From the NCBI GenBank assembly GCA_964359755.1, contig CAYHUB010000002.1, positions 924 to 64,923 of the forward strand: a DNA stretch of 64,000 nucleotides. Direction: 5' to 3'. Of this stretch, positions 17,847-61,499 are shown one piece after another. The notes beneath the pieces were generated by a model. The model ran no database searches. It saw only the letters and a list, made by a program, of their open reading frames with translations, and was not told where the DNA came from. This stretch comes from an uncultured Candidatus Saccharibacteria bacterium. GTDB taxonomy: Bacteria; Patescibacteriota; Minisyncoccia; GWC2-36-17; WO2-46-25. Both the position numbers and the translations under genes were made by a program. The stretch's first letter is position 1; each line of letters opens with the position of its first letter.

Positions 17847-17954
17847 TGTTTCTCTCCTTTTTTAAGGTTATTGGTTTTCCCCTTTGCCAAGAGATTACCC
17901 TTTGTAAAGAACTCATGTTGTTTGAAACAACAAGATCACAGTATGTATGAATGT

Positions 17955-18000
17955 ATGAATCTTGTCAAGTTTCCCAAGACCGTGCTCTTTCTGATATAAT
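17955..18000 (+). promoter_or_regulatory. Candidate pyrG promoter with extended -10 (TGaTATAAT)
   Basis: ctgatataat at 17991-18000, about 28 nt upstream of the pyrG ATG. A TTGTCA-like -35 sits too far upstream, so this relies on the extended -10. Confidence 0.4.
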
Positions 18001-45978: not shown

Positions 45979-47277
45979 ATGAGTAAAGTAAAATACATTA
46001 TCGGCGGGGTACTTGCTCTTGTGGGGGTATTTTGGGTACTTGTGTGGGCGGGCGTGGTGCCGGGCCTGCGGATCATTGATAAAGCGACCATTAAAAAATC
46101 AAAGTTGGTCGTGTGGGGAACAGCGGACGATGCCTCCGTCTACAACGAACTCGCCAAATTATTCAAGGCGGAGAACCCGGGTATGGAGATAACATATCAT
46201 AAAAAGGCCGAAAGCACGTATGAACAAGATCTTTTGCGCGCGTTTGCCGGAGGCGAAGGGCCGGACATATTCGGCGTACATCATACGTGGCTGTATCGCT
46301 ACGGCGATCTTATTACCGCCGCGCCGAAAGAAATCTTTCCTGCGTCGGAATTTCGCGAGCAATTTGTAGATGTAGCGCAGAGGGATTTTCTTTTTGGAGA
46401 AAACTTATTCGGTGTTCCTCTGTATACTGATACGCTCGCGCTGTATTACAACATTGACCTGTTCAACAGCGCCGGCATCGTGTTTCCGCCGAAGGATTGG
46501 GAGGAATTCACGAAATATTCTCAGGCGCTCACAAAACGCAAGCAATCCGGCGATATTGCTGTTTCGGGAGCGGCGCTCGGCGGGGGAAAGAATGTGGTAT
46601 TTTCGAGCGACATCCTTACGGCGCTCATGCTGCAAAACGGGGCGCTTTTATCGGATGCCACCGGCCGCATTAATTTCAAAAGTCTCGGCGGAGGATTGAT
46701 CCCCATAGAAAAAGCGCTTAAGTTTTATACATCGTTTGCAAAACAGACAAGTCCGAATTACAGCTGGTCGGGTACTTCTTTGGAAAATTCAGAAACCATG
46801 TTTGCGCAAGGAAAAGCGGCGATGATACTGGGATATGCGAGCACAAAAGAAAGCATTATGAGAAAGTCTCCGCGTCTGCGGTTTGCGGTCGCCCCGTTTC
46901 CTCAGGTAAAAAATGCCACCATTAAAAAGAATTACGCCGATTATTGGGGATATGCGGTGTATAAAAATTCTCCCAGCAAAGACGCGGCATGGCAGTTTCT
47001 ACATTTTCTTGCCCAGCACAATATCAGCGCGTATTATGCCTCGGTCACCCAGCGGCCGGGAAGCCTGCGGAGCGTGATTGCCGCGCAACAGGAAGATCCG
47101 CAGATAAAAATGTTCGCCGAACAGGCGCTTTCCGCGGTATCATGGATCCAACTCGACGATCAAGTGATCAAACAGGTGTTTACCGATATGATCGATGCGC
47201 AGGTTACGGGGGATCAGCCGCTTCAGCAGGCTATTTTAAGCGCCGATACAAAGATCAACACGCTGATGAAAAAGTAA
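45979..47277 (+). CDS. Extracellular solute-binding protein (family-1 ABC-type SBP) without adjacent permease genes
   Basis: N-terminal TM/signal anchor. KLVVWGTADDASVYNELAKLFKAENPGMEITY is typical of sugar-type SBPs. It is followed directly by the surface-protein genes. Confidence 0.65.
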   Translation: MSKVKYIIGGVLALVGVFWVLVWAGVVPGLRIIDKATIKKSKLVVWGTADDASVYNELAKLFKAENPGMEITYHKKAESTYEQDLLRAFAGGEGPDIFGVHHTWLYRYGDLITAAPKEIFPASEFREQFVDVAQRDFLFGENLFGVPLYTDTLALYYNIDLFNSAGIVFPPKDWEEFTKYSQALTKRKQSGDIAVSGAALGGGKNVVFSSDILTALMLQNGALLSDATGRINFKSLGGGLIPIEKALKFYTSFAKQTSPNYSWSGTSLENSETMFAQGKAAMILGYASTKESIMRKSPRLRFAVAPFPQVKNATIKKNYADYWGYAVYKNSPSKDAAWQFLHFLAQHNISAYYASVTQRPGSLRSVIAAQQEDPQIKMFAEQALSAVSWIQLDDQVIKQVFTDMIDAQVTGDQPLQQAILSADTKINTLMKK

Positions 47278-47278
47278 T

Positions 47279-49969
47279 ATGGAAAAACTTTTTTCGTACC
47301 GTATATATTACTTCTTGTTCGCACTAGCCGGACTTTTTCTGTTTTGCGGAGCGCACTATGCGTACGCGTATATGGCGCCGATAGATTGTGCAGGACCGTA
47401 TCTTCTCGGGCAGAAGTACGATGCATCTCCGCCCCCAACCCCTAAAAACGGTCAATTTGCCTGTGCTATCGGGACGGCAACCGGTGATACGCCGGTACCC
47501 TCGATTCCCTCGGGAAACTTCTATCGCTGCGAGGAAACCATGGCGAACCAGTTGTATTGCCGACATTATATAAATCCGACCACTGATTATTATACCTGTA
47601 CGTATTATGGAACCGGAGCTCATGTCGGAAGCGATTTTTTTCAGAGAATAATATTTGACAATTGCACCTACTCGGTTATTCCACCGACTATTTCGTTTAC
47701 CGCCCCTTCTTCTATTAATTTAGGCCAGTCCGCAACGCTTTCATGGAATGTGACAAACGCGGCAACCTGCACCGCGACGGGAGGGTGGTCCGGTGCCAAA
47801 GCTCTTCCTTCCGGCTCAGAAACGGTAACACCCACCACCACGACGACCTATACGCTATCGTGCACGGGATCAACCACCTTAAGCCAATCGCGCACCGTCA
47901 CGGTCAACATCCCTGACACCACCCCTCCAACCAGCCCGACCAATCTCGCCGCGTTTGCGGTTGCTACGTCCCAGATAAACCTCACCTGGACTGCGTCCAC
48001 CGACACGGGCGGGTCGGGGCTTGCGGGGTATCGTATTGAACGGTGCATGGGAGTGGGGTGCGCGAGTTTTGCCGAAATCGCCACTTCTCCTATTGCAAGT
48101 TACAGTAACATCGGTCTTGCGCCATCCACGAGTTACAGCTATCGCGCGCGCGCGTATGACGGCGCAGGAAATACCAGCGGATATTCCAATATCGACTCCG
48201 ACACCACGCCCGCGCCGGCCGACACCACGCCCCCTTCCGCGCCATCGCTTAGCGGTGTCGTATTTTCTCCCACGCAGATCGATCTTTCTTGGACCGCATC
48301 CACCGACAACGTTGGCGTTACGGGGTATCGCGTGTATCGCAACACCACGCTCATATATACGGCAGGGAGCGCTACAACGATATATTCAGATATGGGCCTC
48401 ATACCTTCCACTTCGTATAGTTATTACGTGTCGGCGTATGATAGCGCGGGAAACGCCACGCAATCTAACACGGTAACTATCGCGACGCCCGCAATACCCG
48501 ACACCACGCCGCCGGTATTTATATTCAATTCTCCCGGCTCGACGCTTCTTGCGGGTACGACGTCTGCGACGCTCGGAGGGACTACGAATGAAAACGCAAC
48601 ATGCCGATATAATGAAAACACCGACACCACGTTTGACTTGATGACGCCATTTAGCACCACGGGAACGACAAGCCATACTAAACTAATCCCGCAACTACCC
48701 TTACAACTGACCGACGGCACCGTGTATTATTATTATGTAAAATGTCGCGATACGGCGCCTATTCCCAATACTAATCCAGTAGGTATTCCGTATATGTTTC
48801 AGGTTGATTCCCCATTGCCCGACACGACGCCTCCTATCATTTCAAACGGATCGCCCTCAGGCGTGCTTGCCGCAGGTACCACATCAGTAACGATGAGCGT
48901 GGTCACCGATGACGATGCGTATTGCCGATATAATCAAGACAGCGATACTACGTTTGACCTTATGACAAATAATTTCACCAGTTCCGATCTTAAAAACCAT
49001 ACGGTACCGCTTATAGGCCTTACCAACGGCTCATCGTATTTGTATTACGTGAGGTGCCAGAACACGCCGGGAGGGTATGCGAACACGAGCGGCTATCCTA
49101 TCTCGTTTGTCATTGCGTTTCCCGCAAACATGAATCCGATGGCATTGATCGTCATAACGCCATCGACATCGGGCACCGCGCCGTTTGCGATATCCGCCAA
49201 CGGAAGCGGAAGCTACGATTCAGACGGAAGTATTGCGCAATATACGTGGAGTTGGGGGGACGGCTCGCCAAACGCGACCGGCGTTGGGTCGTCGCATACC
49301 TACGCCACCGCGGGTACCTACGCACTTTCGCTTAAGGTGGTTGATAATCAAGGCGGCAGCAACACCGCCTACGAGACGATCGCGGTTTCTGCGGCGACCG
49401 TGCTTCCCCCTCCGAGTTCAGTGAATGTGTGCACCGCCGAATGTACGCATACCTCCGACTGCATAGCTCTTTACGGTTCCTCCTCTATCTGCGGTCCTTC
49501 GAAGTTTTGCACCGCGCAAGGGGGCGGCGAGGGCCCGTTCCGTTCTGATTTTTACCTCTCGCGCACCGACGGCTCCATGAGCCAGCAATCGCCCGCCACA
49601 TTCCCCGCGGGAACCGCTTCTGTTATCATGAGCATGAAAACAGACGTGAACGCGGAGTGCCAATATTCGACAGTCAGCAACACGCTCTATGATGCAAGCG
49701 CGATGAAAACATTTACAAGCACCGGCACACTCGATCATTCGGTCACGCTGACCGGCCTCGCAAGTATGACCGCGTCAGCGCACACATACTATGTCCGCTG
49801 CCGCGATCTTGAGAGCGGTATCGTGAATGACACCGATCAAGCCATATCGTTTATTACGGGTGCGCCGATTATTGTGTCGGGTCCGGACCCTTACATGTGC
49901 CTCATTAATGCTGATTTTGTCCGCGACAACATTCCGTATGTGTTTGATATTTGCATGCCGAAACCATGA
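47279..49969 (+). CDS. Large secreted surface protein with FN3, PKD and novel Cys-bracketed repeats (896 aa)
   Basis: Signal peptide; two FN3-like modules (INLTWTASTDTGGSGLAGYRIERC, IDLSWTASTDNVGVTGYRVYRN); three to four repeats of the CRY...TTFDLM...GTTSH...YYYV.C type; a PKD-like module (YTWSWGDGSP...GTYALSLKVVDNQGGSN). Confidence 0.7.
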   Translation: MEKLFSYRIYYFLFALAGLFLFCGAHYAYAYMAPIDCAGPYLLGQKYDASPPPTPKNGQFACAIGTATGDTPVPSIPSGNFYRCEETMANQLYCRHYINPTTDYYTCTYYGTGAHVGSDFFQRIIFDNCTYSVIPPTISFTAPSSINLGQSATLSWNVTNAATCTATGGWSGAKALPSGSETVTPTTTTTYTLSCTGSTTLSQSRTVTVNIPDTTPPTSPTNLAAFAVATSQINLTWTASTDTGGSGLAGYRIERCMGVGCASFAEIATSPIASYSNIGLAPSTSYSYRARAYDGAGNTSGYSNIDSDTTPAPADTTPPSAPSLSGVVFSPTQIDLSWTASTDNVGVTGYRVYRNTTLIYTAGSATTIYSDMGLIPSTSYSYYVSAYDSAGNATQSNTVTIATPAIPDTTPPVFIFNSPGSTLLAGTTSATLGGTTNENATCRYNENTDTTFDLMTPFSTTGTTSHTKLIPQLPLQLTDGTVYYYYVKCRDTAPIPNTNPVGIPYMFQVDSPLPDTTPPIISNGSPSGVLAAGTTSVTMSVVTDDDAYCRYNQDSDTTFDLMTNNFTSSDLKNHTVPLIGLTNGSSYLYYVRCQNTPGGYANTSGYPISFVIAFPANMNPMALIVITPSTSGTAPFAISANGSGSYDSDGSIAQYTWSWGDGSPNATGVGSSHTYATAGTYALSLKVVDNQGGSNTAYETIAVSAATVLPPPSSVNVCTAECTHTSDCIALYGSSSICGPSKFCTAQGGGEGPFRSDFYLSRTDGSMSQQSPATFPAGTASVIMSMKTDVNAECQYSTVSNTLYDASAMKTFTSTGTLDHSVTLTGLASMTASAHTYYVRCRDLESGIVNDTDQAISFITGAPIIVSGPDPYMCLINADFVRDNIPYVFDICMPKP

Positions 49970-52900
49970 AATTTGAAACCTGGAAAACAAAAATAAAAAA
50001 TAAAAAAATACGCATCGCGCTCGCGAGCATGTTTTTGGTCGCCGCAGGCGCGGCACTCGGCGCGATGCCGTTCTATGCGCACGCGAGCACGGTGTTTATT
50101 CCTTTTCCAATTGATGTTGCCAGTTCTAGTACTGCCGGCGTCACCGCATGGACGACATATGCAAATACAGGCGGAGCTATCCCTGCGAGCGCAACCGGCG
50201 TTATTTTGGAAGCTTACGGAAGGATGTGTTGTGTCGATGGTGCCGGTGGGGACGTAGACGGACGTATTAAAATTCGCAAAGATAGCACGTCTTCCGAGTA
50301 CGTGCTTTTACGCGGGAGAGCATCTTCCGGAGGCGACAATGTTGCATGGGTAAATCAAGGGGTGTTTCCTGTCAGTTCAACCGGCACATTTCAATACGCC
50401 GTAGAAAGTCCGGGACTTGACTCGGGATGGAGGATAAAGATAATAGGGTATACCACCGACATTGTATTTGTAGCTCCCGTTCTCATTGGTAGCGGTAGCG
50501 GCACCGATGCCATTTCATGGACAGCATACAACAACGATGGCGGGGTTATTCCTCCCAGCGCAACCGGCGTTATTTTGGAAGCTGAGGCAGCGATGTGTTG
50601 CACTGATGGGGGAGGGGACGTGGATGCGCACATCGTGATTCGCAAAGACGGTACGTCTCCCCAATACGTGCTTTTACGAGGAAGAGCATCTGGCGGAGGC
50701 GACGGTGCCGCTTGGGCAACTCAAGGAGTGTTTCCTGTCAGCTCAGGGGGGGAATTTCAATACGCCATAGAGGCTCCGGGATTTGATGGCTGGCTTGGAC
50801 TTGATGGCGTTACATGGAAGATAAAGATAGTGGGGTATACCACCGACCGCAGATTTATTGCCCCAACCGAAGTCGCCAGCTATACACCATCGTGGTATTC
50901 CATAAGCGGCTCCAATGAGGGTACCGCTCTTCCTGGCTGGACCACCTATACTGATCCAAATGATATCATCCCCTCTAATGCAACCGCTGTTATTTTGCAA
51001 GCGGAAGGAGGGATGGACGGACCAGATGGTGCTATTGATGTGGATGGATATATATTAATCCGTAAAAATAGCTCATCCATGAATCTCACGCTTTTACGCG
51101 GGATATCGTCTTCCGACGGCGACGATATCGCATGGGCAAATCAAGGAGTGTTTCCTCTTAGCCCAACAGGCACATTTGATTACATGGTATTTGCTCCGGG
51201 ATTTCACCACGGATGGAAGCTAAAAATAGTGGGGTATGTCGCCAGCGCGACTCTTCCGTCTATCTGCCCAAACTTCGGTCTTGAACGCACGACGACCTAC
51301 GACCTGCAAAATGAAGCGTACGCGACCGGATATGGCGTTGCCGTGGACAGCAGTAATAATACATACATCACCGGAGATCAATACGCGCCTGCGACGGCAA
51401 GCATGGATATGTATGTCATCAAATACGACCAAGCCGGCAATGTGGTATGGTCTGCCGTATATGATAATGCGGGGGGCAATGAATCGGGATATGGCATCGC
51501 GGTAACGCCAAACGGAAGCGCCGTATATGTGGTGGGAAGCCAGAACGAAAAAGCATTTATACGCAAGTATGATTCAGCCGGATCTTTGGTAACATCATTC
51601 GGTTCCGGCGGGACAGTGGTATATGAATATGGCGCCCAGACCGTCGCGCGCGCGGTCGCGCTTGATACCGCGGGGAATGTGTATGTAGCGGGACATCGGG
51701 GAAAAGCATCAGGGTCGGGCATTGACGCGGTATTGCTGTCATACAATTCTTCCGGATCGCTCCTTTCAGGGTTCCCGGTGATCTACAGCGCTACATATAA
51801 TTCATCCGCGCTCGGCGTTACGGTGTCGGGTTCTTCCGTGTATATGACGGGGTATGTTCAAGTGTCTTCCACAGATACCGATATGTTTGTGGGGAAATAT
51901 ACCACAAGCGGCGCGCTGTCGTGGTCTAAAACGTATCAGAATACAATATCAATCACTATTTTTGGCACAACGATTACCTTACCTGATGAGAATGAAACCG
52001 AAACAGGATATGGCGTGAGCGTGGATGGCAGCGGAAATGTGTTTGTAACGGGATACACCAGCGAAAATGGAGGGCATACCTTTTTGAGAAAATATGATTC
52101 ATCGGGAGCGCTTGCGTGGGGCGAGGTGCGCAACTCCGCCGGCGTTCCCAATGACATGGGGAGGGGGGTGGTAGTCGGAAATTCTGGGAGGATATTTGTA
52201 ACAGGGCGCCAGCAAACAAACAATGAGGACGCGTTTTTGGCGGAATATTATACGGATCAAACGACCCTTGTTACCTACCCTGATTTTTCAAAGGGACCGC
52301 TAAGTTTATGCGCAAACGGTAAAATCGCTTTTGTATATGAAAGAAATGGATCAAGGGCGCGCGTGTATCTTACGACTTTTCCCACAGGCAGTAGTGACAC
52401 TACTACTTGGGTGGGGTTTGGATGCACGGGCGGTGATCCCGGGCATTGGGCCGAAGCCGCCGGCAAAAGAATGTTCTATGATTTTGATTGGAATGATGTC
52501 CCTGCGGAAATAACCGAATTTACCGCGATAGTAGACACCAATGATTCAAATGTAGGCACCAAGGACTGGAAGGGATCGGCGACGTTTTTAAGAAGCGATG
52601 CGGACAAAACGGTTATGGGCGGTGAGTGTTACTGTAGCACTACGTGGGGTACTCCACTCTCTCCTCTCACCATGGATATTCACTGGCACAGCGTGCTTAA
52701 AGGGTTGACTCCCACTACCCTCCCTTATCAAGGCGATAAGGGAGGTATGACGGAGTATAACGAAATGGCGCATGGCATTGCGCAGACCAACTCAACCGTT
52801 TCGGGACACACTACTACTTCTAATGACGTATATGTCGTTGGGTATCAGGCATCTAATGGCGGTTCGGCATTTCTCAATAAATACAGTTGTAATGCGTTAT

Positions 52901-55900
52901 TAGGTCCGGGAGGTGGAGGCGGAGGCGGAGGCGATACCGTGATCGCTGCTTTCACCCCCACGCCGATCAGCGGGACGGACCCGCTCACGGTGAGCGTGGA
53001 CGCACGCGCTTCTTCAGGCACGATAACAAGCTATGAATGGGATTGGAGCTATGACGGCGTTACATTTGATATCGATGGTATGGGCATGCTTGCATCGAAC
53101 GAATATACCGCGCACGGAACATATACGATCGCGTTGAGAATAACCACGGTTGGAAACGTAACCGATATCGATGCGCAAACCATCACTGTTTCGCCAAACC
53201 AGGCACCTATCGCCGGCTTTAAAGTGTGCGATATGGATAACAGTAACTGCGTACCTCCGGCGCCCGAGCCATTTACCGGCGCGTCGCCTCTGCGCGTGAA
53301 TGTAGACGGCGGCGACGGGGCAAGCTACGATCCGGATGAATTACAAGGCGGCTATATCGCATCCTTCAGCTGGGACTGGGGCGACGGGACGGTTTCAGGG
53401 GTCGGCGAGAAAGCAACACACCTGTATTCCACTCCTAAGCCATATACCATCACGCTTACCGTGACGGATAATGGAGGCTTACCGAGCACCGCCGTAACAA
53501 AGAGTGTTTTAGTGACCGAACAATACGTATGCACGTCGGGATCGGGGTCTGGAGGAGTATGTGCGGGATCAACGCCGGTATGCGGTCCCACGGAAACAGA
53601 GGGCGTTACGGCGTGCTATGCGTGTCTTGAGGATACGAGTTGCGGGACAGGATACCAGTGCCTCGGTGCCGCGTGCAACGCAGGCGATATGTGTCTTCCT
53701 GATGCCGCCGGCAATCCTGTCGCGTGTCCTTTGGACGGGAAATGCCCCGAAGCAGTTACTTGTAACCCGCTTGTAAGCGCGACGTGCCCCGATGGTTCGA
53801 CATGCCCCGCAAGCGGAGTTTGCCCGGCGGTGAAAAACATTTGTGCGCTTTCGGGTTCCGGGGTTGATGCGCAATGCTATGTTGAGGAGCAGGGGAGCTG
53901 CGCAATCAATGCCGATTGCACCGAAAGCATTATGGGAGGCGTATGCGAGAGCGGTTCGTGCAGATACGCCCGCTGTTCATACGAAAATTCATTGGCGTGT
54001 ACCACCGCCGCCGATTGCGCGGACAGCGACGGCATTTGCAACGCCGGTGCATGCGTATATATATACGATTGCGCGTACGGCCCCGGCATGGAGGGAGGGG
54101 TAACGGGGTTATACGTCACCTCCACGCCCGACACGATGCCGACGATGCCGATGGGCGTTCAGTCGGACGGGCAGGCGTGCACTCAGCCGACGCCCGACGC
54201 GCCCAACAACTGCGAAGGCATCAACGGATGTCTGTATTACAATTATTATCCCACCACCGGAACACCGATTCCTAATTCAAGTAACAGCGTTGCCAACTGC
54301 GTGAATACGTTTGAAGGAGGCACCGGGTGCATATATTACCAATATTACAGTTCGCTTGCCGTCGCCACGACGCCGGCGACAAAAACCAATTGCTTGCCGC
54401 GCTACGCCGAGAAGTCAAAAAAATCGCCACAGGCGGGCATTCCCGAAGGGTGTTTTGTCGTTGACAAAGGCACCGCGGGAAAGGAATACAACTGTACTTC
54501 AATTGACGGATGTTATTACTATCTCGACGGAAGCGTTGATTGCACGTACACGAAAGCTACCGCGACAGCGTGCACGACAAACGCGCAGTGCGAAGCGGCA
54601 AGTACCGTGCCGCTTATGATCCCCGTGTGCGATACGGGCCTATGCGAATACAAAGGGAACGGGTGCTTTTATGAGCCGAATCCCGAGGGCGCTATTTCAT
54701 GCCCGGGCGCGACCAGACCTGCCACAGGCGGAGATGACTTTGTCCAGTGCACGCTGAACCCCGACGGATTACTTCCCGGGTTTTTGGATACAAGCGGCAA
54801 CGTGCTTAGTTCGTGCAACACGAACGCTGATTGTCCCGCGAATAATATCTGTCTGAACGGCACATGCTATCCGGCCTGTCAGGCAAATGTCGACTGCGCG
54901 ACCGGCGAGCAATGCACGACCACTTGTACTACCTCGATGGACTGCACCGCAGGGCTGATATGCGATGCAAACGTATGCGTACTGCCGCAGTGCGCGGGCG
55001 CAACGCCATCAGGAACGCTGTGGAATGTCACCATGGCGAATCTCGGCCTTACCACTTCCACGGATTCAAATTGCAGATATTCAATCGACAGTGCCACCGC
55101 GTATACCGCAATGATGCCGTTTGCGACCACGAACACGACAAGCCACAGCCAGCAGTTGACCGGTCTTATTGACGGTTCCTACGCATACTATGTGTTGTGC
55201 CAGGAACTATCATCAAGCGTGCTTGCCGGTATGTGCCAGATTGATTTTACGATCGATACGCTCATGTGTATCCCGGGCACGATATGCCCCAACGGCGCGG
55301 TGTGCCCCGCTAGCGGGGTGTGCCCGTCAACGGTCCCTGCGTGCGCGGGCGCGTCCCCCACAGGCAAACTTCCTTTCGGCACGACCTCGACAACGATTGG
55401 GCTTGCCACCGCGCAAGACGCGATATGCAGCTACTCTTTGATAGTGACCGATCCGTATGCAACGATGGCGCCGTTTACCACTACCGGTACGACAAGTCAT
55501 AGCACGAACGTAACAGGTCTGTTTACGGGTGCAAATACCTATTACGCAAAATGCCAAGATGCGGCTGACCCAACTAAAATCACCAATGCGTGTTCGATAG
55601 TATTCGGGGTGGGAGACGATTGCACCTCAAATTTGCAGTGTTTTGGCGGATTTCAGTGCGTGAACGGCACATGCCAGCCGCCGGTGTGCGGGAACGCGTT
55701 GCCGACCGGCGCGCTTACTCCGGGAACTCCGAGCACGACCATCAGCATGACGACCCCCGCGGATGCAACCTGCCGATATTCGATCAATAGCGCTGATCTG
55801 TACAGCGCGATGACTTCATTCACTACGACCGGCACCACAAATCATTCCTCCTTTGTGTCGGGGCTTGTAACGGGGGGAAACACGCATTATGTGCGGTGCC

Positions 55901-56580
55901 AGGATGCGGTGACCAGCGCGGAAAAATTCTGTTCGATTCCGTTCACGGTCGGCGTGTGCAATCAGCAATACAAATGCGAAACAGGGTGGATGTGTATTCC
56001 CAACATCGGGAACGGTATGTGCACTCCGCCGCCGCCGCCATGTGATCCGGGCACGCTGTGCCCCGATGGGCAGATGTGTCCCGTAAACGGAATGTGTCCG
56101 CCGCCGCCGCCATGCGTGCAGGGAGACCCTCTTTGTTCGAACAACTGGTGTCCGCAGGGATCCGTATACAACGCAATCACGGGAGAGTGCGATTACGGTA
56201 ATTACGATACTTTCTGTTCGTTGAATCCCACGCATCCGTTATGTGTTAGTGGGCCATCAGGGCCGAACAGCGCGATCTTATCCGGCATCACATCCTGCAA
56301 CACACTTGGGTATACCTTCACCGGCACGGCGATTACGCCGTCGGGCAATTGCGATCTTGTCGCTATCATCCTCGCCCTGCTTTCATGGATGGCGTGGATC
56401 ATCGCTTTGCTTGCGGTACTCTCGGGTCTGCGCGCGGCGTATCTCTATATCACCTCCATGGGCGACGAGCGCAAGCTTATTCTCGCGCGCCGGTATTTGA
56501 TCTATACTACGATCGGCGTAGGCGTGTCGGTACTGACCTTCAGCATCGTGGCGATAACAAGGGCAATACTCAACATCTAA
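49951..56580 (+). CDS. Giant multi-domain surface protein (2209 aa) with C-terminal pilin-like two-helix anchor
   Basis: Signal peptide; three about-130-aa N-terminal repeats; SBBP-like beta-propeller repeats (GYGVAVDSSNNTYITG...); a Gly9 linker; two PKD-like modules; Cys-rich EGF-like segments; four CRY/CSY-type repeats; a Pro/Cys-rich stalk. The C-terminus LLSWMAWIIALLAVLSGLRAAYLYITSMGDERKLILARRYLIYTTIGVGVSVLTFSIVAI is homologous to the downstream small proteins. Confidence 0.75.
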   Translation: MHAETMKFETWKTKIKNKKIRIALASMFLVAAGAALGAMPFYAHASTVFIPFPIDVASSSTAGVTAWTTYANTGGAIPASATGVILEAYGRMCCVDGAGGDVDGRIKIRKDSTSSEYVLLRGRASSGGDNVAWVNQGVFPVSSTGTFQYAVESPGLDSGWRIKIIGYTTDIVFVAPVLIGSGSGTDAISWTAYNNDGGVIPPSATGVILEAEAAMCCTDGGGDVDAHIVIRKDGTSPQYVLLRGRASGGGDGAAWATQGVFPVSSGGEFQYAIEAPGFDGWLGLDGVTWKIKIVGYTTDRRFIAPTEVASYTPSWYSISGSNEGTALPGWTTYTDPNDIIPSNATAVILQAEGGMDGPDGAIDVDGYILIRKNSSSMNLTLLRGISSSDGDDIAWANQGVFPLSPTGTFDYMVFAPGFHHGWKLKIVGYVASATLPSICPNFGLERTTTYDLQNEAYATGYGVAVDSSNNTYITGDQYAPATASMDMYVIKYDQAGNVVWSAVYDNAGGNESGYGIAVTPNGSAVYVVGSQNEKAFIRKYDSAGSLVTSFGSGGTVVYEYGAQTVARAVALDTAGNVYVAGHRGKASGSGIDAVLLSYNSSGSLLSGFPVIYSATYNSSALGVTVSGSSVYMTGYVQVSSTDTDMFVGKYTTSGALSWSKTYQNTISITIFGTTITLPDENETETGYGVSVDGSGNVFVTGYTSENGGHTFLRKYDSSGALAWGEVRNSAGVPNDMGRGVVVGNSGRIFVTGRQQTNNEDAFLAEYYTDQTTLVTYPDFSKGPLSLCANGKIAFVYERNGSRARVYLTTFPTGSSDTTTWVGFGCTGGDPGHWAEAAGKRMFYDFDWNDVPAEITEFTAIVDTNDSNVGTKDWKGSATFLRSDADKTVMGGECYCSTTWGTPLSPLTMDIHWHSVLKGLTPTTLPYQGDKGGMTEYNEMAHGIAQTNSTVSGHTTTSNDVYVVGYQASNGGSAFLNKYSCNALLGPGGGGGGGGDTVIAAFTPTPISGTDPLTVSVDARASSGTITSYEWDWSYDGVTFDIDGMGMLASNEYTAHGTYTIALRITTVGNVTDIDAQTITVSPNQAPIAGFKVCDMDNSNCVPPAPEPFTGASPLRVNVDGGDGASYDPDELQGGYIASFSWDWGDGTVSGVGEKATHLYSTPKPYTITLTVTDNGGLPSTAVTKSVLVTEQYVCTSGSGSGGVCAGSTPVCGPTETEGVTACYACLEDTSCGTGYQCLGAACNAGDMCLPDAAGNPVACPLDGKCPEAVTCNPLVSATCPDGSTCPASGVCPAVKNICALSGSGVDAQCYVEEQGSCAINADCTESIMGGVCESGSCRYARCSYENSLACTTAADCADSDGICNAGACVYIYDCAYGPGMEGGVTGLYVTSTPDTMPTMPMGVQSDGQACTQPTPDAPNNCEGINGCLYYNYYPTTGTPIPNSSNSVANCVNTFEGGTGCIYYQYYSSLAVATTPATKTNCLPRYAEKSKKSPQAGIPEGCFVVDKGTAGKEYNCTSIDGCYYYLDGSVDCTYTKATATACTTNAQCEAASTVPLMIPVCDTGLCEYKGNGCFYEPNPEGAISCPGATRPATGGDDFVQCTLNPDGLLPGFLDTSGNVLSSCNTNADCPANNICLNGTCYPACQANVDCATGEQCTTTCTTSMDCTAGLICDANVCVLPQCAGATPSGTLWNVTMANLGLTTSTDSNCRYSIDSATAYTAMMPFATTNTTSHSQQLTGLIDGSYAYYVLCQELSSSVLAGMCQIDFTIDTLMCIPGTICPNGAVCPASGVCPSTVPACAGASPTGKLPFGTTSTTIGLATAQDAICSYSLIVTDPYATMAPFTTTGTTSHSTNVTGLFTGANTYYAKCQDAADPTKITNACSIVFGVGDDCTSNLQCFGGFQCVNGTCQPPVCGNALPTGALTPGTPSTTISMTTPADATCRYSINSADLYSAMTSFTTTGTTNHSSFVSGLVTGGNTHYVRCQDAVTSAEKFCSIPFTVGVCNQQYKCETGWMCIPNIGNGMCTPPPPPCDPGTLCPDGQMCPVNGMCPPPPPCVQGDPLCSNNWCPQGSVYNAITGECDYGNYDTFCSLNPTHPLCVSGPSGPNSAILSGITSCNTLGYTFTGTAITPSGNCDLVAIILALLSWMAWIIALLAVLSGLRAAYLYITSMGDERKLILARRYLIYTTIGVGVSVLTFSIVAITRAILNI

Positions 56581-56583
56581 ACC

Positions 56584-56618
56584 TTGAAACGTGAAACGTG
56601 AAACGTGGAACATGAAAC
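56584..56618 (+). promoter_or_regulatory. Five tandem heptamers (TTGAAAC GTGAAAC GTGAAAC GTGGAAC ATGAAAC) at the start of the pilin-like array
   Basis: Read directly from the sequence. The array spans the 31-nt gap after the giant gene stop and reaches the first pilin-like gene's start codon. Confidence 0.4.
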
Positions 56619-57274
56619 ATAGAATTCAAAATTCAAGCGCTGTTTTTTTTGTATGTGCCACAGTCGCGCTGGCGTTTCTTTTTCCGTTGGCTACCGGGGT
56701 GTATGCGGAACCATTTACTCCGGGCCCAACCGGAACGCCTAGTCCCATATTCGAACCTCCCACCGGAGCCACATCGTTTTCCGCTATTGTGTGCAAAGTA
56801 ATCGAGTTTTTTTCCGCAACAATCCTTCCGCCGCTTGCGGTACTGATGATGCTGGTGGTAGGATTTTTGTTCATGATAGGCGGCCAGATGCCTCAGAAAG
56901 CGATTGCCGCGCGAAAAACGCTGTTATACGTTGTCGCGGGAGTGGTATTGCTGTTGCTTGCCCCGGGGATCCTTGGGGTGATTGTTGATATCACAGGAGC
57001 ATCATCTGCATCCTTTACCGCGTGCTCCACGTCAATAACGACCGCGAGCATCATAGCAACGATCGCAGGACTCGTTAATTGGTTCGCGTGGTTCGTTTCT
57101 ATCACCTCCGTCGCGATGGGCCTGTACGCCGGCGCGCTCTACCTCACCGCGCGTGGCGATTCAGCGCAGGTGCTCAAAGCGACAAAAGTGTTTTCCTTTA
57201 CCATTATCGGCATCGCGGTCGCGGTCGTTTCGTTCAGCATTATCGTGCTGACAAAAACGTTCTTCGGGATATAG
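56612..57274 (+). CDS. Secreted protein with two tandem pilin-like two-helix domains
   Basis: Signal peptide ...ATGVYA/EPF. First domain ILPPLAVLMMLVVGFLFMIGGQMPQKAIAARKTLLYVVAGVVLLLL. Second domain VNWFAWFVSITSVAMGLYAGALYLTARGDSAQVLKATKVFSFTIIGIAVAVVSFSII. ATG at 56612; the track uses GTG at 56591. Confidence 0.6.
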   Translation: MKHRIQNSSAVFFVCATVALAFLFPLATGVYAEPFTPGPTGTPSPIFEPPTGATSFSAIVCKVIEFFSATILPPLAVLMMLVVGFLFMIGGQMPQKAIAARKTLLYVVAGVVLLLLAPGILGVIVDITGASSASFTACSTSITTASIIATIAGLVNWFAWFVSITSVAMGLYAGALYLTARGDSAQVLKATKVFSFTIIGIAVAVVSFSIIVLTKTFFGI

Positions 57275-57310
57275 GATCTCCTAAGCATAAGACTACCGCG
57301 CATATTTCTG

Positions 57311-57415
57311 CGCCACCCTCGCCTATAATTCTTTCTTTTATCTTAACGGAAGCGCAGCCCTTCAATAATTATTATATACATAAAGGGCGTGAGAGGATTA
57401 AAGAAGGAGGTGGGG
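57311..57415 (+). repeat. Palindromic intergenic repeat element, copy E
   Basis: The core is identical to copy B. The outer IR cgccaccctcgcc / ggaggtggggggtg is imperfect. Confidence 0.75.
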
Positions 57416-57470
57416 GGTGATGGCTGATACTACTTGAGCGGGAAACCAATCTCGTAATTCAAAATAACAT

Positions 57471-57713
57471 ATGGAAACAAATCCAATCGTACTGATGTTT
57501 ATCAACCTTATTAACTGGTTTTCCTGGTTTGTTTCCATCACCTCCGTCGCGATGGGCCTGTACGCGGGCGCGCTGTATCTCACCGCGAAAGGGGATCCGG
57601 CAAAAGTAGCGAACGCATCGCGGGGCCTTTTGTATACGATTATCGGCGTTGTCGTTTCTATCGCCGCGTTCAGTATTAAGGCAATCGTGAAATCGCTCAT
57701 CGTTTTTGGGTGA
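57471..57713 (+). CDS. Truncated pilin-like paralogue lacking a signal peptide (possible pseudogene or recombination remnant)
   Basis: 80 aa: LINWFSWFVSITSVAMGLYAGALYLTAKGD.... Nucleotides 57521-57563 are identical to 57088-57130 of the upstream gene. Preceded by repeat copy E. Confidence 0.4.
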   Translation: METNPIVLMFINLINWFSWFVSITSVAMGLYAGALYLTAKGDPAKVANASRGLLYTIIGVVVSIAAFSIKAIVKSLIVFG

Positions 57714-57840
57714 TCTCTGCAGGAGGATGCAGATTGCACGAAGCTATTTCGTTTTCCTCTGTGGATAGACTTTTTATCGCTTTTTTAGTATAGTAAAGAG
57801 AGTAAAAAAGGTCGAAAAATAACTAATTTTATTTCGTTTT

Positions 57841-58218
57841 ATGAAAAAATATTTAGCATTCGTAATGGTAGTGGCATTTGCGTTTTCTTTCGCAAGCGTA
57901 GCATTTGCACAGGCTCCCGGTCAGGCGATCACCCCTACAGGGCTCACCGCTGACACGCTTGGCACCTCAGGATCGGTCACCGATACCACCTCTTTAGTTG
58001 GAAAGATCATGGGCTTGGTGAATTGGATAGCGTGGTTCGTCGGTTTGATGGCGGTATTGATGGGCTTGTACGCGGGCGTTTTGTTTATTACCGCGGCAGG
58101 CAATGCAGATTCGATCACCAAAGCGCGAAGCATTTTGCTTTACGCAATCGTTGGTATCGCAGTGGCGGTACTCGCATTCAGCTTGGTCGCGATCTCGAAA
58201 TCGGTTTTCTCTCTGTAA
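57841..58218 (+). CDS. Secreted pilin-like protein (125 aa), copy 1
   Basis: Signal peptide MKKYLAFVMVVAFAFSFASVAFA/QAP, a Thr/Ser-rich segment, then VNWIAWFVGLMAVLMGLYAGVLFITAAGNADSITKARSILLYAIVGIAVAVLAFSLVAI. Confidence 0.7.
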   Translation: MKKYLAFVMVVAFAFSFASVAFAQAPGQAITPTGLTADTLGTSGSVTDTTSLVGKIMGLVNWIAWFVGLMAVLMGLYAGVLFITAAGNADSITKARSILLYAIVGIAVAVLAFSLVAISKSVFSL

Positions 58219-58241
58219 TTCAATTTTATTCTCGAATACGC

Positions 58242-58275
58242 GCAAGCCCCCTCGTTGGAGGGGGCTTGCTGTTAT
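58242..58275 (+). terminator. Rho-independent terminator
   Basis: gcaagccccctc-gttg-gagggggcttgc hairpin followed by TGTTATTGT. Confidence 0.7.
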
Positions 58276-58365
58276 TGTGGATACCGTACGTATACTGTTT
58301 TCCATAAGTTTGATATAGTAAAGAGAGTAAAAAAGGTCGAAAAATAACTAATTTTATTTCGTTTT

Positions 58366-58743
58366 ATGAAAAAATATTTAGCATTCGTAATGGTAGTGGC
58401 ATTTGCGTTTTCTTTCGCAAGCGTAGCATTTGCACAGGCTCCCGGTCAGGCGATCACCCCTACAGGGCTCACCGCTGACACGCTTGGCACCTCAGGATCG
58501 GTCACCGATACCACCTCTTTAGTTGGAAAGATCATGGGCTTGGTGAATTGGATAGCGTGGTTCGTCGGTTTGATGGCGGTATTGATGGGCTTGTACGCGG
58601 GCGTTTTGTTTATTACCGCGGCAGGCAATGCAGATTCGATCACCAAAGCGCGAAGCATTTTGCTTTACGCAATCGTTGGTATCGCAGTGGCGGTACTCGC
58701 ATTCAGCTTGGTTGCGATCTCGAAATCGGTTTTCTCTCTGTAA
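58366..58743 (+). CDS. Secreted pilin-like protein (125 aa), copy 2 (identical protein)
   Basis: Protein sequence is identical to 57841-58218. Confidence 0.7.
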   Translation: MKKYLAFVMVVAFAFSFASVAFAQAPGQAITPTGLTADTLGTSGSVTDTTSLVGKIMGLVNWIAWFVGLMAVLMGLYAGVLFITAAGNADSITKARSILLYAIVGIAVAVLAFSLVAISKSVFSL

Positions 58744-58765
58744 TTCTTTTTACTCCGACATCTCG

Positions 58766-58803
58766 CTCCCGTCCTTGCTTCATGTAAGGGCGGGAGTTTG
58801 TTG
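58766..58803 (+). terminator. Rho-independent terminator
   Basis: ctcccgtcc...ggacgggag hairpin (one GU pair) followed by TTTGTTGTTG. Confidence 0.55.
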
Positions 58804-58856
58804 TTGGGGATAAAGAGATGTGCTTTTTTGCGATAGTTTTGATACACTGTACGTAT

Positions 58857-59249
58857 ATGAAAAATATCTGTGTGAAGATGGTTTTACTTATGGTGGTAGG
58901 CGTTGCTATCGCCATGCCGTTTGGCGTGTTGGCGCAGGATAATCCGATAGGCAAGATTAGTGATGTTGGTGCGGGAGTTGGAGAAGTTAATATTAGTACG
59001 GGTGCCGTGCTCAACGCAGACACACTTGTTACAATAATTACGACGCTGGTAAACTGGTTTGCATGGGTTATTGCGCTTGCATCGGTCGTTATGGGCCTAT
59101 ACGCCGGATTTCTTTTTATCACCGCCAGAGGAGAAGCATCGCAGATCTCAACGGCGCGCCAGACGCTTCTGTGGGCGGTCATCGGCATTGCGGTTGCGGT
59201 CATTTCGTTCAGCATTATCATATTAACCAAAACAATTTTTGATTTATAA
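58857..59249 (+). CDS. Secreted pilin-like protein (about 130 aa)
   Basis: Start chosen at MKNICVKMVLLMVVGVAIAMPFGVLA/QDN (signal peptide). C-terminus VNWFAWVIALASVVMGLYAGFLFITARGEASQISTARQTLLWAVIGIAVAVISFSIII. The track ORF starts at 58818. Confidence 0.65.
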   Translation: MKNICVKMVLLMVVGVAIAMPFGVLAQDNPIGKISDVGAGVGEVNISTGAVLNADTLVTIITTLVNWFAWVIALASVVMGLYAGFLFITARGEASQISTARQTLLWAVIGIAVAVISFSIIILTKTIFDL

Positions 59250-59254
59250 TTTCT

Positions 59255-59641
59255 ATGAAATATAAAACATACATCGTACTGTTATTCATGGTATTGATCG
59301 CGCCGGCCATTGTTTTTGCCGCCGCCCCCGATTCAACACTTGGGAAGATCACTGATAGTGCCACAACAGGCATAGCGACAGATTCAAACAGTGCAGATTA
59401 TGCAGATGTAAACACGATTACGGGCAAAATTACAGGCGTAGTAAACTGGTTTTCGTGGGGCATCGCGCTTGTATCGGTGGTCATGGGGTTGTATGCCGGA
59501 TTTCTTTTTATCACCGCCAGAGGAGAGCCCGCCCAGCTTAAAACCGCGCGCGCGACACTTTTGTGGGCGATAATCGGCGTTGCGGTGGCGGTGCTCGCGT
59601 TTAGCATCATTGCTATTACAAAATCTATTTTTACACTGTAA
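59255..59641 (+). CDS. Secreted pilin-like protein (128 aa)
   Basis: Signal peptide MKYKTYIVLLFMVLIAPAIVFA/AAP. C-terminus VNWFSWGIALVSVVMGLYAGFLFITARGEPAQLKTARATLLWAIIGVAVAVLAFSIIAI. Confidence 0.7.
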   Translation: MKYKTYIVLLFMVLIAPAIVFAAAPDSTLGKITDSATTGIATDSNSADYADVNTITGKITGVVNWFSWGIALVSVVMGLYAGFLFITARGEPAQLKTARATLLWAIIGVAVAVLAFSIIAITKSIFTL

Positions 59642-59663
59642 GCAGGTTATTTTTTAAAAAAAG

Positions 59664-59697
59664 AACCCCTCGTTTTGCACTTGCAAAACGAGGGGTT
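59664..59697. terminator. Bidirectional hairpin between pilin array and convergent minus-strand operon
   Basis: aacccctcgttttgca / tgcaaaacgaggggtt 16-bp stem. T-tract on the minus-sense side, A/T tract on the plus side. Confidence 0.65.
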
Positions 59698-59712
59698 TAG
59701 TTATCGCGGAGG

Positions 59713-60444
59713 TCAGTGGTTCTCGACCTCCATTGTTGGGGGCTCCGAACGGAACCGCGTTGCATGAAACGTTGCGGTGGATCCGTCCCATCCGATCTGT
59801 TCGTTCGCGGCGGGATCGGTGAGGAACGCCTGCATATAGTTATACTGCAGGTGCACCTCGGCTTTTTCGGTGAGCGGATTATTAAAGTAGATAATGCCCC
59901 CCGCCTCCCTGATGTAGTCGTGCGCCACGATGTTCCCACGCGCATCCTGAATGATAAAAACCATAACCCCGGGAGGCAGATCGGGAAAGGGGAGATCATG
60001 GCGGAACCTAGGGCGCGTCACTTTGCCCGGCTCGCCATAAATGGGGATACTCGCGCCATTAGCACCGTACGAACACCGATTCCTTGTGGGGAAATCGGGG
60101 CCGAAATCAATGTGCCTGATTTGGACGTTCTCGCCCGGCTCAAGCGAGGTGATATATGGATACATCACCTCGCAGGGGGTGACGATCTCCACATCTTTGC
60201 CTCCTGCCATTTCTCTGCGGCGAGTTTTTGTTTTAATCCCGGGCTTTTTAACAGTTGATCCTCTCGCGATCCATAAGTCGCCTTCTATGAATCCCTTCGG
60301 GGCGTGGGATTCGCGGTATACTCTGATTTCTCGCGATATCGCCTTGTCCGCGAATTTGAAGATCGCAAGCAGAATGAGAAGTGTAATTCCCCACCAGAAC
60401 ATTTTCGTGCCGACCTTAACAGCTTTGTCATCCGATATGTTCAT
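59713..60444 (-). CDS. Hypothetical membrane-anchored protein (243 aa)
   Basis: Single N-terminal TM (MFWWGITLLILLAIFKF), then a soluble domain without recognisable motifs. The ATGA overlap with the upstream gene implies an operon. Confidence 0.45.
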   Translation of the reverse strand: MNISDDKAVKVGTKMFWWGITLLILLAIFKFADKAISREIRVYRESHAPKGFIEGDLWIARGSTVKKPGIKTKTRRREMAGGKDVEIVTPCEVMYPYITSLEPGENVQIRHIDFGPDFPTRNRCSYGANGASIPIYGEPGKVTRPRFRHDLPFPDLPPGVMVFIIQDARGNIVAHDYIREAGGIIYFNNPLTEKAEVHLQYNYMQAFLTDPAANEQIGWDGSTATFHATRFRSEPPTMEVENH

Positions 60445-61499
60445 AGCTTTTTACCTCCTTTCTTTTTACCGCCGGTGACCGCTTTTCCTGCCATCACCAT
60501 TTGGCTAAGAGCAAGTAACGTTTCGGGCGGAACATTTTCAAGCCCCGTCAGGCTCACATCAATGCGCTGTGCCTCGGGCTTCTGGTAGTACTCCTGTACC
60601 ACCATGACGAGATCCCGCGCTTCTTTGTCGTTGAGGGAAGGATTTTTCTTCTTCACCTCTTCGATCATTGCCAACACAAGGTTGGTGTCGAGGCGCTCGA
60701 TCTCCCGCTCGATGTCGCGCTGACGGAATTCGCTTCTCACCTTCGCGGTCTCGGGGTTTGGCTCGAGCGCAAGCGTGCTGACGGTGAGCAGAACGCCGTA
60801 ATCCTCGAGAAATATCCGCTCAAGACCGCGCACATTGTTGTCTTGTTCCGGCAGATTTCTTTCTTCAGGGATCATTAACGTGATATCTGAAGTATCAATG
60901 TTGCGCGCCTCCATCTTTTTCTTAAACTCTTCTTGGTAGACGGTGGCAATCGCGATGATCCTTTGCTCCGCCGTTTTGTTTCCATTGTCGGGAACGCTAT
61001 ATTTAAGCCCTTTCCCGATGGCAAGCTGGATCGCGTCGTTCATTTTTTTGGAAAGCGCGCATTCGGCGGGTATGGTCGTGAGCAATTCATCAAGCATCTC
61101 CGCCATCCGCGCTTTTGCATCAGTTTCTATCTTTTCCTGTTGTTTGTCGTACAGCAAAAGATAGTTCGATGCACTGCTGATCCATGCCAGGCCGCGTTTG
61201 TTCATTTCTTCCGGCGGTAAAAGCTGAAAGCCGAACGTACCTTTGCATTGTATCTGGTCATCAAGTACGTTCATGGTAAACTCAAACGGAACCCTTTCTC
61301 GCGGTTTCAGCGAGTGAAGTATCAGCGAGCAGAACGGGGGAAGAATACGCAGTCCCTCCGTTAAGACTCTGTTAAGCCGCTTGCCTCCCAAAAAAACAGG
61401 GATGGCAAGCATGTTTGGCGGTACCAACCGCACAAACAGCCATACGAATGTTCCTGCGCCGATCAATATCAGCGCGAGTGTGAAGATTAGATTCTGCAT
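60441..61499 (-). CDS. SPFH/band-7 (flotillin-like) membrane protein, tentative
   Basis: N-terminal TM; IPVFLGGKRLNRVLTEGLRILPPF... matches the SPFH pattern loosely; long charged, helical C-terminal half. 352 aa. Confidence 0.4.
   Translation of the reverse strand: MQNLIFTLALILIGAGTFVWLFVRLVPPNMLAIPVFLGGKRLNRVLTEGLRILPPFCSLILHSLKPRERVPFEFTMNVLDDQIQCKGTFGFQLLPPEEMNKRGLAWISSASNYLLLYDKQQEKIETDAKARMAEMLDELLTTIPAECALSKKMNDAIQLAIGKGLKYSVPDNGNKTAEQRIIAIATVYQEEFKKKMEARNIDTSDITLMIPEERNLPEQDNNVRGLERIFLEDYGVLLTVSTLALEPNPETAKVRSEFRQRDIEREIERLDTNLVLAMIEEVKKKNPSLNDKEARDLVMVVQEYYQKPEAQRIDVSLTGLENVPPETLLALSQMVMAGKAVTGGKKKGGKKL

Follow-up and report, generated by a model that had tools for sequence, protein, structure and literature searches.

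The stretch of DNA analysed here (64,000 nucleotides of contig CAYHUB010000002.1, positions 924 to 64,923; hereafter the window) carries nine co-directional open reading frames (ORFs) on its plus strand (45979-59641) that encode, in order, a solute-binding protein (SBP), a protein of 896 amino acids (aa), a giant protein of 2,204 aa, a protein of 220 aa, and small proteins of 80, 125, 125, 130 and 128 aa; an earlier reading of this DNA made without database searches (the sequence-only reading) had placed all of them, and their strand, correctly, but had not chosen between a pilus subunit, a membrane anchor and a novel appendage as the role of the shared domain. A two-helix domain of about 75 aa related to the VirB2/TrbC-like pilins of type IV secretion systems (T4SS) is present once in the giant protein, twice in the 220-aa protein (hereafter the di-pilin), and once in each of the five small ORFs. 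The locus is interpreted, with about even confidence, as a chromosomal pilin island of an ultrasmall groundwater bacterium, Candidatus Azambacteria (Patescibacteria/candidate phyla radiation, CPR), that encodes six classes of VirB2-like module, one of them fused to a putative Sec-exported adhesin of 2,204 aa that would join pilin assembly or a T4SS. Arrays of VirB2-like pilin genes are already known in Patescibacteria (PMC12102498; PMC10633639; PMC12857230), and the literature searched says nothing on Azambacteria pilins, on pilins with several modules, or on the joining of such a module to a large ectodomain. New relative to that literature are the conserved fusion of the giant protein to a pilin module and the conservation of its hairpin, which exceeds that of all other parts of the locus; the fusion, which the sequence-only reading called unusual, is the only part of that reading not already described.

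The shared domain was traced with a profile hidden Markov model (HMM) built from the five small paralogues only and searched against all 885 six-frame ORFs of the window. This local HMM matched the last 73 aa of the giant protein (E=4.8e-20), both halves of the di-pilin (E=7.7e-6 and 4.6e-38) and each small ORF (E<=1e-38), and no other ORF. Comparison by hhalign of an alignment of eight orthologous giant tails with one of 60 small pilins gave a probability of 99.7% (E=1.2e-26) over 77 gap-free columns. Thus the domain that the sequence-only reading had assigned to every protein of the locus is indeed common to the giant and the small proteins, but not to the SBP or the 896-aa protein, neither of which is matched by the local HMM. 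The motif offered for the domain, W-x-A-W-x(10)-G-L, matches no ORF as written, the true spacing being x(9); in the form W-x-[AS]-W-x(9)-G-L, with a few positions relaxed, it matches exactly seven ORFs of the window. The first domain of the di-pilin and a distant copy on the opposite strand (41287-41709), said to conform to the same motif, are homologous by Pfam but too divergent to fit it. Positions occupied by W, G, T and A are invariant across the 60 aligned small pilins.

The Pfam searches proposed in the sequence-only reading upheld a VirB2/TrbC-like identity. The gathering score of PF18895 (T4SS_pilin; 26.6 bits) was exceeded by seven proteins, namely the six small proteins of the island and the distant copy (26.9-38.5 bits), and that of PF04956 (TrbC/VirB2; 27.9 bits) by one, the di-pilin (profile positions 4-96 of 98); apart from a lower-scoring match in the distant copy, the remaining proteins had no match to PF04956, and one module of eight reaches its cut-off. 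PF18895 was matched by 59 of 60 close homologues, and sub-threshold matches (E down to 1e-6) were found to NCBIfam NF045849, a pilin-like conjugal transfer protein of Mycoplasma integrative and conjugative elements. At E<=1e-3 an exhaustive profile search returned 51,369 cluster representatives, of which 3,435 remained at E<=1e-10, and by this measure the pilin-like family is very large. Searches by tblastn of 72,556 plasmids found nothing for the di-pilin and, for the Cys-containing distant copy, one weak match (E=0.01) annotated as 'pilin'; it lies on a megaplasmid of Miltoncostaea, and none of the annotations around it is recognisable as T4SS. Hydropathy and AlphaFold2 (AF2) modelling both predict a signal peptide and, after it, two helices joined by a short polar loop into a hairpin of about 70 aa; the Sec signal attributed to all of the small paralogues is lacking in the 80-aa ORF and is predicted in the others. 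In the AF2 model of the 128-aa pilin (pLDDT 76), a signal helix (residues 2-22) is followed by a disordered segment (23-51), a helix (52-87), a loop (88-91) and a second helix (92-125). As a separate observation, 48 of the 60 small pilins matched, below threshold, one and the same pair of helices in subunit II of cytochrome bd oxidase (PF02322, positions ~135-209). These reached at most 24 bits against a cut-off of 35.6, extend over two transmembrane (TM) helices only, and were treated as probably compositional, though oddly reproducible.

The giant protein comprises 2,204 aa when read from the ATG at 49966 that public gene calls use, and the 2,209 aa first proposed when read from an upstream TTG. 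Its order of parts is an N-terminal signal or anchor, three beta-sandwich repeats, SBBP beta-propeller repeats (also called delta-60 repeats), two PKD domains, Cys-rich and Ig-like modules, and the pilin hairpin. TM segments are predicted at aa 15-37, 2127-2163 and 2177-2204, with 103 Cys residues in between, and the Ig-like modules are shared with the 896-aa neighbour (BLASTP segments 31-47% identical). The same exact protein is encoded on at least nine independent metagenome contigs and is therefore not an assembly chimera; most of the retrieved contigs come from the 0.1 and 0.2 um filter fractions of Hainich groundwater well H52.

Orthologues of the giant protein, of 1317-1882 aa, were found in seven related loci, so that with the window the fusion is present in eight Azambacteria loci. 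Five (L013-L017; four titled Candidatus Azambacteria and one 'Patescibacteria group bacterium') came from a scan of GTDB species genomes with an alignment as the query, a scan that returned nothing when the single giant sequence was used, and two (L011 and L012) came from metagenomes. Conservation was expressed as percent identity to the window, L017 being the most distant locus. The hairpin of the giant protein (last 78 residues) is 85-96% identical among the seven loci apart from L017, where it is 64% identical. The corresponding values are 38-78% (36-44% in L017) for two blocks of about 500 aa of the ectodomain preceding the hairpin, 51-91% in three loci (39-54% in L017) for the di-pilin modules, and 53-81% in five loci (48% in L017) for the whole SBP; the free pilins, at 54-91% identity across loci, are also less conserved than the giant hairpin. 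Thus the giant hairpin is the most constrained element of the locus. The membrane anchor of the SBP served as a control, and it is less conserved than the rest of its protein (45 vs 54% in L012, 46 vs 62% in L016, 37 vs 49% in L017). A hairpin that is best conserved where a control anchor is not points to specific protein contacts rather than simple membrane retention. Two signatures mark the tail of the giant protein: an Arg in the first hydrophobic helix (GLRAA) in seven of eight giants, at a position where free pilins have Tyr (GLYAG), and a pair of Cys residues directly before the hairpin in all eight (C-x18-C in seven, C-x21-C in L017).

The gene order of the related loci is GyrA, methyltransferase, SBP, usually an fn3/PKD protein (about 900 aa; 1,376 aa in L012), giant protein, di-pilin and mono-pilins, and the succession of giant, di-pilin and mono-pilins holds in all contigs that reach past the giant gene, namely those of the window, of four of the five GTDB species genomes and of one of the two metagenome loci; the contig of L011 ends at the giant gene and those of L014 and L015 within the next gene. 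Loci L012 and L017 have one Cys-type pilin gene between the giant and the di-pilin. These Cys-type pilins are orthologues of the distant copy at 41287-41709, which is thus a part of this system. Six orthologous pilin classes were resolved in a neighbour-joining tree built from 44 modules: the giant-linked class, which is monophyletic with short branches; the 125-aa pilins; the second module of the di-pilin together with the leaderless 80-aa protein; the 128- and 130-aa pilins; the first module of the di-pilin; and the Cys type. So fixed a set of classes looks less like free antigenic variation than like major and minor subunits with separate tasks. Beyond these loci, many family members have 2-16 pilin modules per chain (P0059 of L019, P0043, P0005 of L020, P0008, P0037, P0107 and P0140), and some of these also carry an ectodomain, either Cys-rich and C-terminal or located at the N-terminus. 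PF04956 is matched by the 16-module protein, whose genomic context looks archaeal (ribosomal protein L39e, Cas4). In L020, where GyrA, methyltransferase and SBP are syntenic with the window, a protein of seven modules (hepta-pilin) replaces the giant protein.

Several features of the giant protein and its neighbour are of adhesin type (PKD, fn3 and SBBP domains, the 103 Cys residues, and N-terminal repeats resembling the tip of Bd2133), and the three tandem repeats at the N-terminal, distal end are candidates for a ligand-binding tip. Word-indexed homology searches returned two proteins only for the repeat, and four fragments only for the last 199 aa of the giant protein. An AF2 model of one repeat, made from an alignment of four sequences only, is an all-beta, eight-stranded beta-sandwich (pLDDT 77.5, pTM 0.73). 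The only significant Foldseek matches of the model were to the fibre tip of Bdellovibrio Bd2133 (8OND/8OK3; E=4e-5, TM-score 0.62-0.67), a trimeric tip of the 'mosaic adhesive trimeric' (MAT) fibres involved in prey recognition (Caulton et al. 2024, PMC10769870). The modelled repeat and the Bd2133 tip have in common a beta-sandwich at the distal end of a long surface protein, in a bacterium that lives on other bacteria. They differ in sequence (14-16% identity) and in setting, as Bd2133 forms a beta-helix fibre of three identical chains that has its tip at the C-terminus, whereas the copies in the giant protein are N-terminal and occur three times in tandem in a single chain; Pfam and NCBIfam scans found no beta-helix or S74 domain, so that only the tip fold is common to the two. 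It is attractive to suppose that the three repeats might form a single-chain pseudo-trimer.

In the proposed mechanism, signal peptides would direct export, and each hairpin would insert into the membrane so that its two ends face outward and the short basic loop lies in the cytoplasm, as suggested by hydropathy and by the known topology of the family. If tandem modules and N-terminal ectodomains are all to lie outside, only this both-ends-out topology of the hairpin is consistent. VirB2 and TraA have this same membrane topology, and in the structures of the F and T pili their termini are on the outer surface of the pilus. With both ends outside, an N-terminal extension, whether short and disordered or giant, would be compatible with display outside a filament. 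The small pilins would form a pool that is extracted and polymerised by a VirB4-type T4SS encoded elsewhere in the genome, as expected from knowledge of the family, and the giant protein might enter the assembly by way of its pilin module, whether as the subunit that initiates it (at the tip) or as one incorporated now and then, or might be docked at the base. The PKD, beta-propeller and Ig-like modules could then hold the distal triple beta-sandwich tip tens of nanometres out, where it may bind a host cell. The giant protein would thus be a counterpart of FimH, and could stand in for VirB5 or PrgB, which are adhesins of other T4SSs. Of all this, the analysis shows homology, architecture, conservation and synteny, while export topology, polymerisation, a need for the T4SS and adhesion are inferred from sequence.

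The place of this proposal among published findings is as follows. Quinonero-Coronel et al. (2025, PMC12102498) found VirB2-like pilins in 1,948 Patescibacteria assemblies and pilin genes near virB4 in 1,135 of these. In about 40% of the assemblies with pilins no pilin gene is near virB4, and the same study reports 441 arrays of 2-11 pilin genes, with a maximum within-array identity of 54%, and no PrgB-like adhesin in its Patescibacteria dataset. Azambacteria RBG_16_47_10, which is listed as VirB4-positive in Table S1 of PMC12102498, carries the same pilin/giant locus (L016). The pilin array of Southlakia epibionticum is essential (Wang et al. 2023, PMC10633639), and in a review of 2025 a pilus-bearing T4SS of Gram-positive type is described as an 'intriguing possibility' (PMC12857230).

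Several observations weigh against the participation of the giant protein in a T4SS-linked pilin assembly. Its tail alone scores 19.4 bits against PF18895 (E=1e-3), which is under the cut-off, but is tied to the small pilins by the local HMM and hhalign, so that its membership in the family is transitive; the 'pilin' label of PF18895 is itself inferred. The two-helix hairpin anticipated by the sequence-only reading was reproduced by AF2, but Foldseek comparison of the pilin model with the PDB yielded generic helical hairpins only, the best at E=1.5, with neither VirB2 nor TraA among them. So simple a fold discriminates poorly in such a search, and the modelled structure neither supports nor contradicts family membership. 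A sequence search of the PDB with the domain profile found no pilin, its one match being a spurious one to cytochrome bd (E=1.1). As the sequence-only reading had stated for the window, no T4SS ATPase or channel gene is present in its 64 kb, nor is there one within 10 kb of any related locus, and for the Patescibacterial T4SS in general neither a pilus nor an adhesin has so far been identified (PMC10633639; PMC12857230; PMC12102498). A load of 2,100 aa on the N-terminus is sterically hard to accommodate in a helical lattice of VirB2 type unless it is carried at a tip or by few subunits, and chains of up to 16 tandem modules, a poor fit to a classical pilus, hint at a module working within the membrane. 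Conservation of the hairpin does not distinguish contacts in a filament from contacts in the membrane, and the similarity of the predicted tip to Bd2133 rests on a model of four sequences with a pLDDT of 77.

The main alternative is that the hairpin serves only to anchor or dock the giant protein, keeping it in the cytoplasmic membrane where it would never be polymerised and where its pilin ancestry would hold it beside the pool of pilins or, in the manner of PrgB, beside the base of a T4SS, or else that it forms an oligomeric membrane platform with its small paralogues; we consider this a serious alternative, though a less probable one than participation in pilin assembly. The topology of the protein, with an N-terminal signal and a C-terminal two-TM hairpin, fits such an anchor, the steric difficulty of so large a load would not arise, relatives in which 5-16 modules follow one another, or which have an ectodomain at one end or the other, resemble membrane arrays more than they do pilus subunits, a pilus has never been observed for the PF18895 family, and specific protein-protein contacts within the membrane would be equally expected to conserve the hairpin. 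A simple anchor, however, would not be the best-conserved part of its protein, as the control anchor of the SBP is not; the hairpin of the giant protein keeps the gap-free pattern of the family over its full length, including the basic residue of the loop; and its constant adjacency to fixed pilin classes suggests co-assembly.

A more far-reaching form of the proposal is that the VirB2-like hairpin of CPR bacteria (and some archaea) is a general module for building large ectodomains into T4SS filaments. The giant protein would then be a true subunit, at the tip or sparsely placed, its triple Bd2133-like pseudo-trimer would recognise the host, and di- and poly-pilins of 2-16 modules would be pre-linked protomers; taken as a whole, this seems rather unlikely.

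A surface appendage independent of any T4SS, its modules polymerised or displayed by non-VirB4 machinery with the SBP and the 896-aa protein as possible partners, is distinctly improbable. In its favour, the island never adjoins T4SS genes in the loci examined, the SBP gene is always directly upstream, even where a hepta-pilin takes the place of the giant protein, and the SBP, 896-aa and giant genes are translationally coupled. However, the flanks are also conserved (gyrA and methyltransferase upstream; S1, FtsH and Band_7-like genes downstream), so that linkage to the SBP may be plain synteny, no ATPase or other source of energy is encoded in the locus, and the family is statistically linked to virB4 by the published figures given above. 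That the proteins are generic small hydrophobic membrane proteins, with Pfam matches that are compositional artefacts of two TM helices, is most improbable and was already disfavoured: the recurrent matches to cytochrome bd, a protein that was also the only match in the PDB sequence search, and the non-specific fold search would fit such a view, but all of the cytochrome bd matches fall under the cut-off that the PF18895 matches pass, one protein matches the TrbC/VirB2 model over its full length, the family is represented thousands of times at stringent E-values, and invariant W, G, T and A residues in 60 sequences are unlike the effect of composition alone.

The pilin island was compared with the known systems most similar to it. 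With the published VirB2-like arrays of Patescibacteria it has in common small PF18895 proteins with a signal peptide and a hairpin, encoded by chromosomal tandem arrays of divergent paralogues that may be located away from virB4. It differs from them in that one module is fused to a 2,204-aa adhesin-like protein and another protein has two modules, in that two members are 100% identical whereas published members of an array are far less alike, and in that its six classes are conserved between species, unlike free antigenic variation. With VirB2 of Agrobacterium, TrbC of RP4 and TraA of F, its proteins have in common a leader, two hydrophobic helices and a short basic loop, and the di-pilin passes PF04956; it differs from them in belonging to a monoderm host, in having none of the genes for VirB5, VirB1, cyclase or acetylase in its vicinity, and in the long disordered N-terminal extensions of its pilins, and the Foldseek search gave no match to solved pilins such as TraA, VirB2 or CedA1. 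We know of no fusion to large ectodomains in the canonical VirB2/TrbC/TraA family.

FimH, the tip adhesin of chaperone-usher (type 1) pili, consists of a lectin domain and a pilin domain, and PilB of Streptococcus sanguinis is a modular type IV pilin. The giant protein would follow the same logic, in which an N-terminal receptor-binding module is joined to a pilin module that plugs into a filament of paralogues, and its gene likewise lies beside structural pilin genes; the fold and mode of assembly are unrelated (Ig-like donor-strand exchange in one case, a type IV N-terminal helix in the other), and the ectodomain is here about ten times larger, so that the parallel is one of function by analogy and not of family membership. 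PrgB and VirB5 have the role proposed for the giant protein, contact of a T4SS with its target cell. PrgB is anchored to the cell wall by sortase and VirB5 is a small helical protein, and neither has a pilin module. Pfam and NCBIfam scans of the giant and 896-aa proteins found no sequence or domain similarity to either, and in place of the adhesin and polymer-adhesin domains and LPXTG motif of PrgB-type proteins the giant protein ends in its hairpin. The Pam pilus of CPR bacteria, which is made of Ig-like pilins by donor-strand exchange (NCBIfam NF058578 PamR, >=300 bits; bioRxiv 10.64898/2026.03.03.709456), was also considered and rejected, as the sole match was one of 16.7 bits in the PKD region of the 896-aa protein, a weak Ig-domain match, and the architecture is unrelated.

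The features of the island are listed in the following table.

Table. Pilin island and associated features of the window.
Feature	Position	Strand	Evidence and remarks
Cys-containing pilin of a different class, 140 aa	41287..41709	-	PF18895 38.5 bits (best in the window); TrbC 17.6 bits
SBP, membrane-anchored, 432 aa	45979..47277	+	PF01547 E=1e-33; N-terminal TM segment aa 3-33; no pilin domain
896-aa exported Ig-rich protein	47279..49969	+	Pfam two fn3 and PKD_4; no pilin domain
Giant surface protein, 2,204 aa	49966..56580	+	Pfam/NCBIfam matches; TM segments
Three tandem repeats of ~130 aa, N-terminal (distal) end of giant protein	50089..51306	+	Repeat alignment, AF2 model; candidate ligand-binding tip
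VirB2-like pilin module, C-terminus of giant protein	56356..56577	+	Local HMM, hhalign
Di-pilin, 220 aa, signal peptide and two modules (56771-56974, 57035-57271)	56612..57274	+	PF18895 in two stretches; PF04956 32.8 bits
Leaderless 80-aa pilin module	57471..57713	+	PF18895 31.6 bits
125-aa pilin copy A	57841..58218	+	PF18895 33.5 bits; terminator hairpin 58242-58269
125-aa pilin copy B	58366..58743	+	Protein identical to copy A; terminator hairpin 58765-58797
130-aa pilin with signal peptide	58857..59249	+	PF18895 30.8 bits; start set by homologue P0058
128-aa pilin with signal peptide	59255..59641	+	PF18895 26.9 bits; bidirectional terminator hairpin 59664-59697

Minimal or overlapping junctions, claimed in the sequence-only reading for the whole series of genes, were found from the SBP gene to the di-pilin gene (1, -4 and 31 nucleotides, the stop codon of the 896-aa protein overlapping the ATG of the giant protein as ATGA) and between the last two genes, but the others are wider, the gaps after the di-pilin being in order 196, 127, 147, 113 and 5 nucleotides. 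Strong terminator-like hairpins are located 3' of each 125-aa gene and of the final gene. Thus, the locus consists of one tightly coupled operon from the SBP to the di-pilin followed by individually terminated small genes, rather than of a single operon. Most of the 31-nucleotide gap between the giant and di-pilin genes is occupied by a perfect heptamer repeat, (GAAACGT)x3, at 56586-56606. Phase variation of the di-pilin by this repeat was considered and rejected, its copy number being three in nine of nine independent assemblies.

Among the small pilin genes, the 80-aa ORF lacks a signal peptide and cannot be extended upstream in frame. It was considered as a pseudogene, but a leaderless orthologue that is 83% identical is present in a related species (L013), and this explanation was rejected. 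Within 57400-57470, a strong Shine-Dalgarno-like GGAGGTG is followed by a mini-ORF of five codons (MADTT and a stop) about 35 nucleotides upstream of the 80-aa pilin; this mini-ORF could be what is left of an N-terminal region since lost, or a short leader ORF. Copy A of the 125-aa pilin, with a signal peptide, a disordered extension rich in Thr, Ser and Gly, and a hairpin, has its own promoter-like site as well as its terminator. The two copies lie within a duplication of 447 nucleotides that is 98.9% identical (57789-58235 vs 58314-58758) and includes about 50 nucleotides upstream; this duplicated, separately terminated gene likely encodes the major subunit. Two alleles of the 125-aa pilin occur in one aquifer population and differ at 14 residues, all at aa 49-96 (first helix and loop), with identical flanks. 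They are combined in three haplotypes, (1,1) in the window, L007 and L009, (2,2) in L006 and L008, and (2,1) in L005, while the surrounding ~14.7 kb hardly differ in any other respect. The two copies of 125-aa type are each other's nearest relatives in L016 and L017 too, which together with the haplotypes suggests gene conversion between tandem copies. The Cys-type pilin gene lies 8 kb upstream, on the opposite strand.

The SBP is an orphan of MalE type with a TM anchor, and its gene is translationally coupled to that of the 896-aa protein; neither a permease nor an ATPase of ABC type was found with it in the 64 kb of the window. The SBP gene precedes the pilin genes in all related loci that reach that far upstream, including L020, in which the giant gene is absent. 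Downstream of the island, on the minus strand (59713-61499), are two genes convergent upon it that encode proteins of 243 and 352 aa with N-terminal TM segments and no Pfam match; the equivalent position in L020 is occupied by a Band_7/SPFH protein, and the two may be membrane-scaffold neighbours of the pilin island or represent simple conserved synteny. The window is otherwise a housekeeping stretch of the chromosome (IleRS, RecO, ProRS, CTP synthase, UvrB, RuvA, Mur ligases, MetRS, GyrA). The IleRS-like class I synthetase (1088-4693, 1,201 aa) has a histidine phosphatase insert (PF00300, aa 523-688, E=3e-26) that splits the catalytic domain. A DUF11-repeat protein of 628 aa (5275-7161) is likely another surface protein, and an ORF of 317 aa (17046-17999) has no Pfam or NCBIfam match.

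Patescibacteria, which live attached to other cells, may account for a large part of the diversity of bacteria. Their T4SS proved essential in the single species in which this has been examined, and it is unusual among monoderm systems in having VirB2-like pilins (PMC10633639; PMC12857230; PMC12102498). The giant protein may be the adhesin that these secretion systems were thought to lack, and is a testable candidate for it; if it is a pilus subunit, the monoderm T4SS of Patescibacteria would gain its missing adhesin, and the fusion of giant protein and pilin is a concrete candidate for coupling host recognition to the secretion apparatus. The giant protein is also a natural tag for whether pilin modules leave the membrane, and possibly a first handle on filament formation. 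With its tandem modules and fusions to ectodomains, the PF18895 family is architecturally richer than the picture of a 'small pilin' implies, and these architectures constrain models of how, or whether, PF18895 proteins polymerise.

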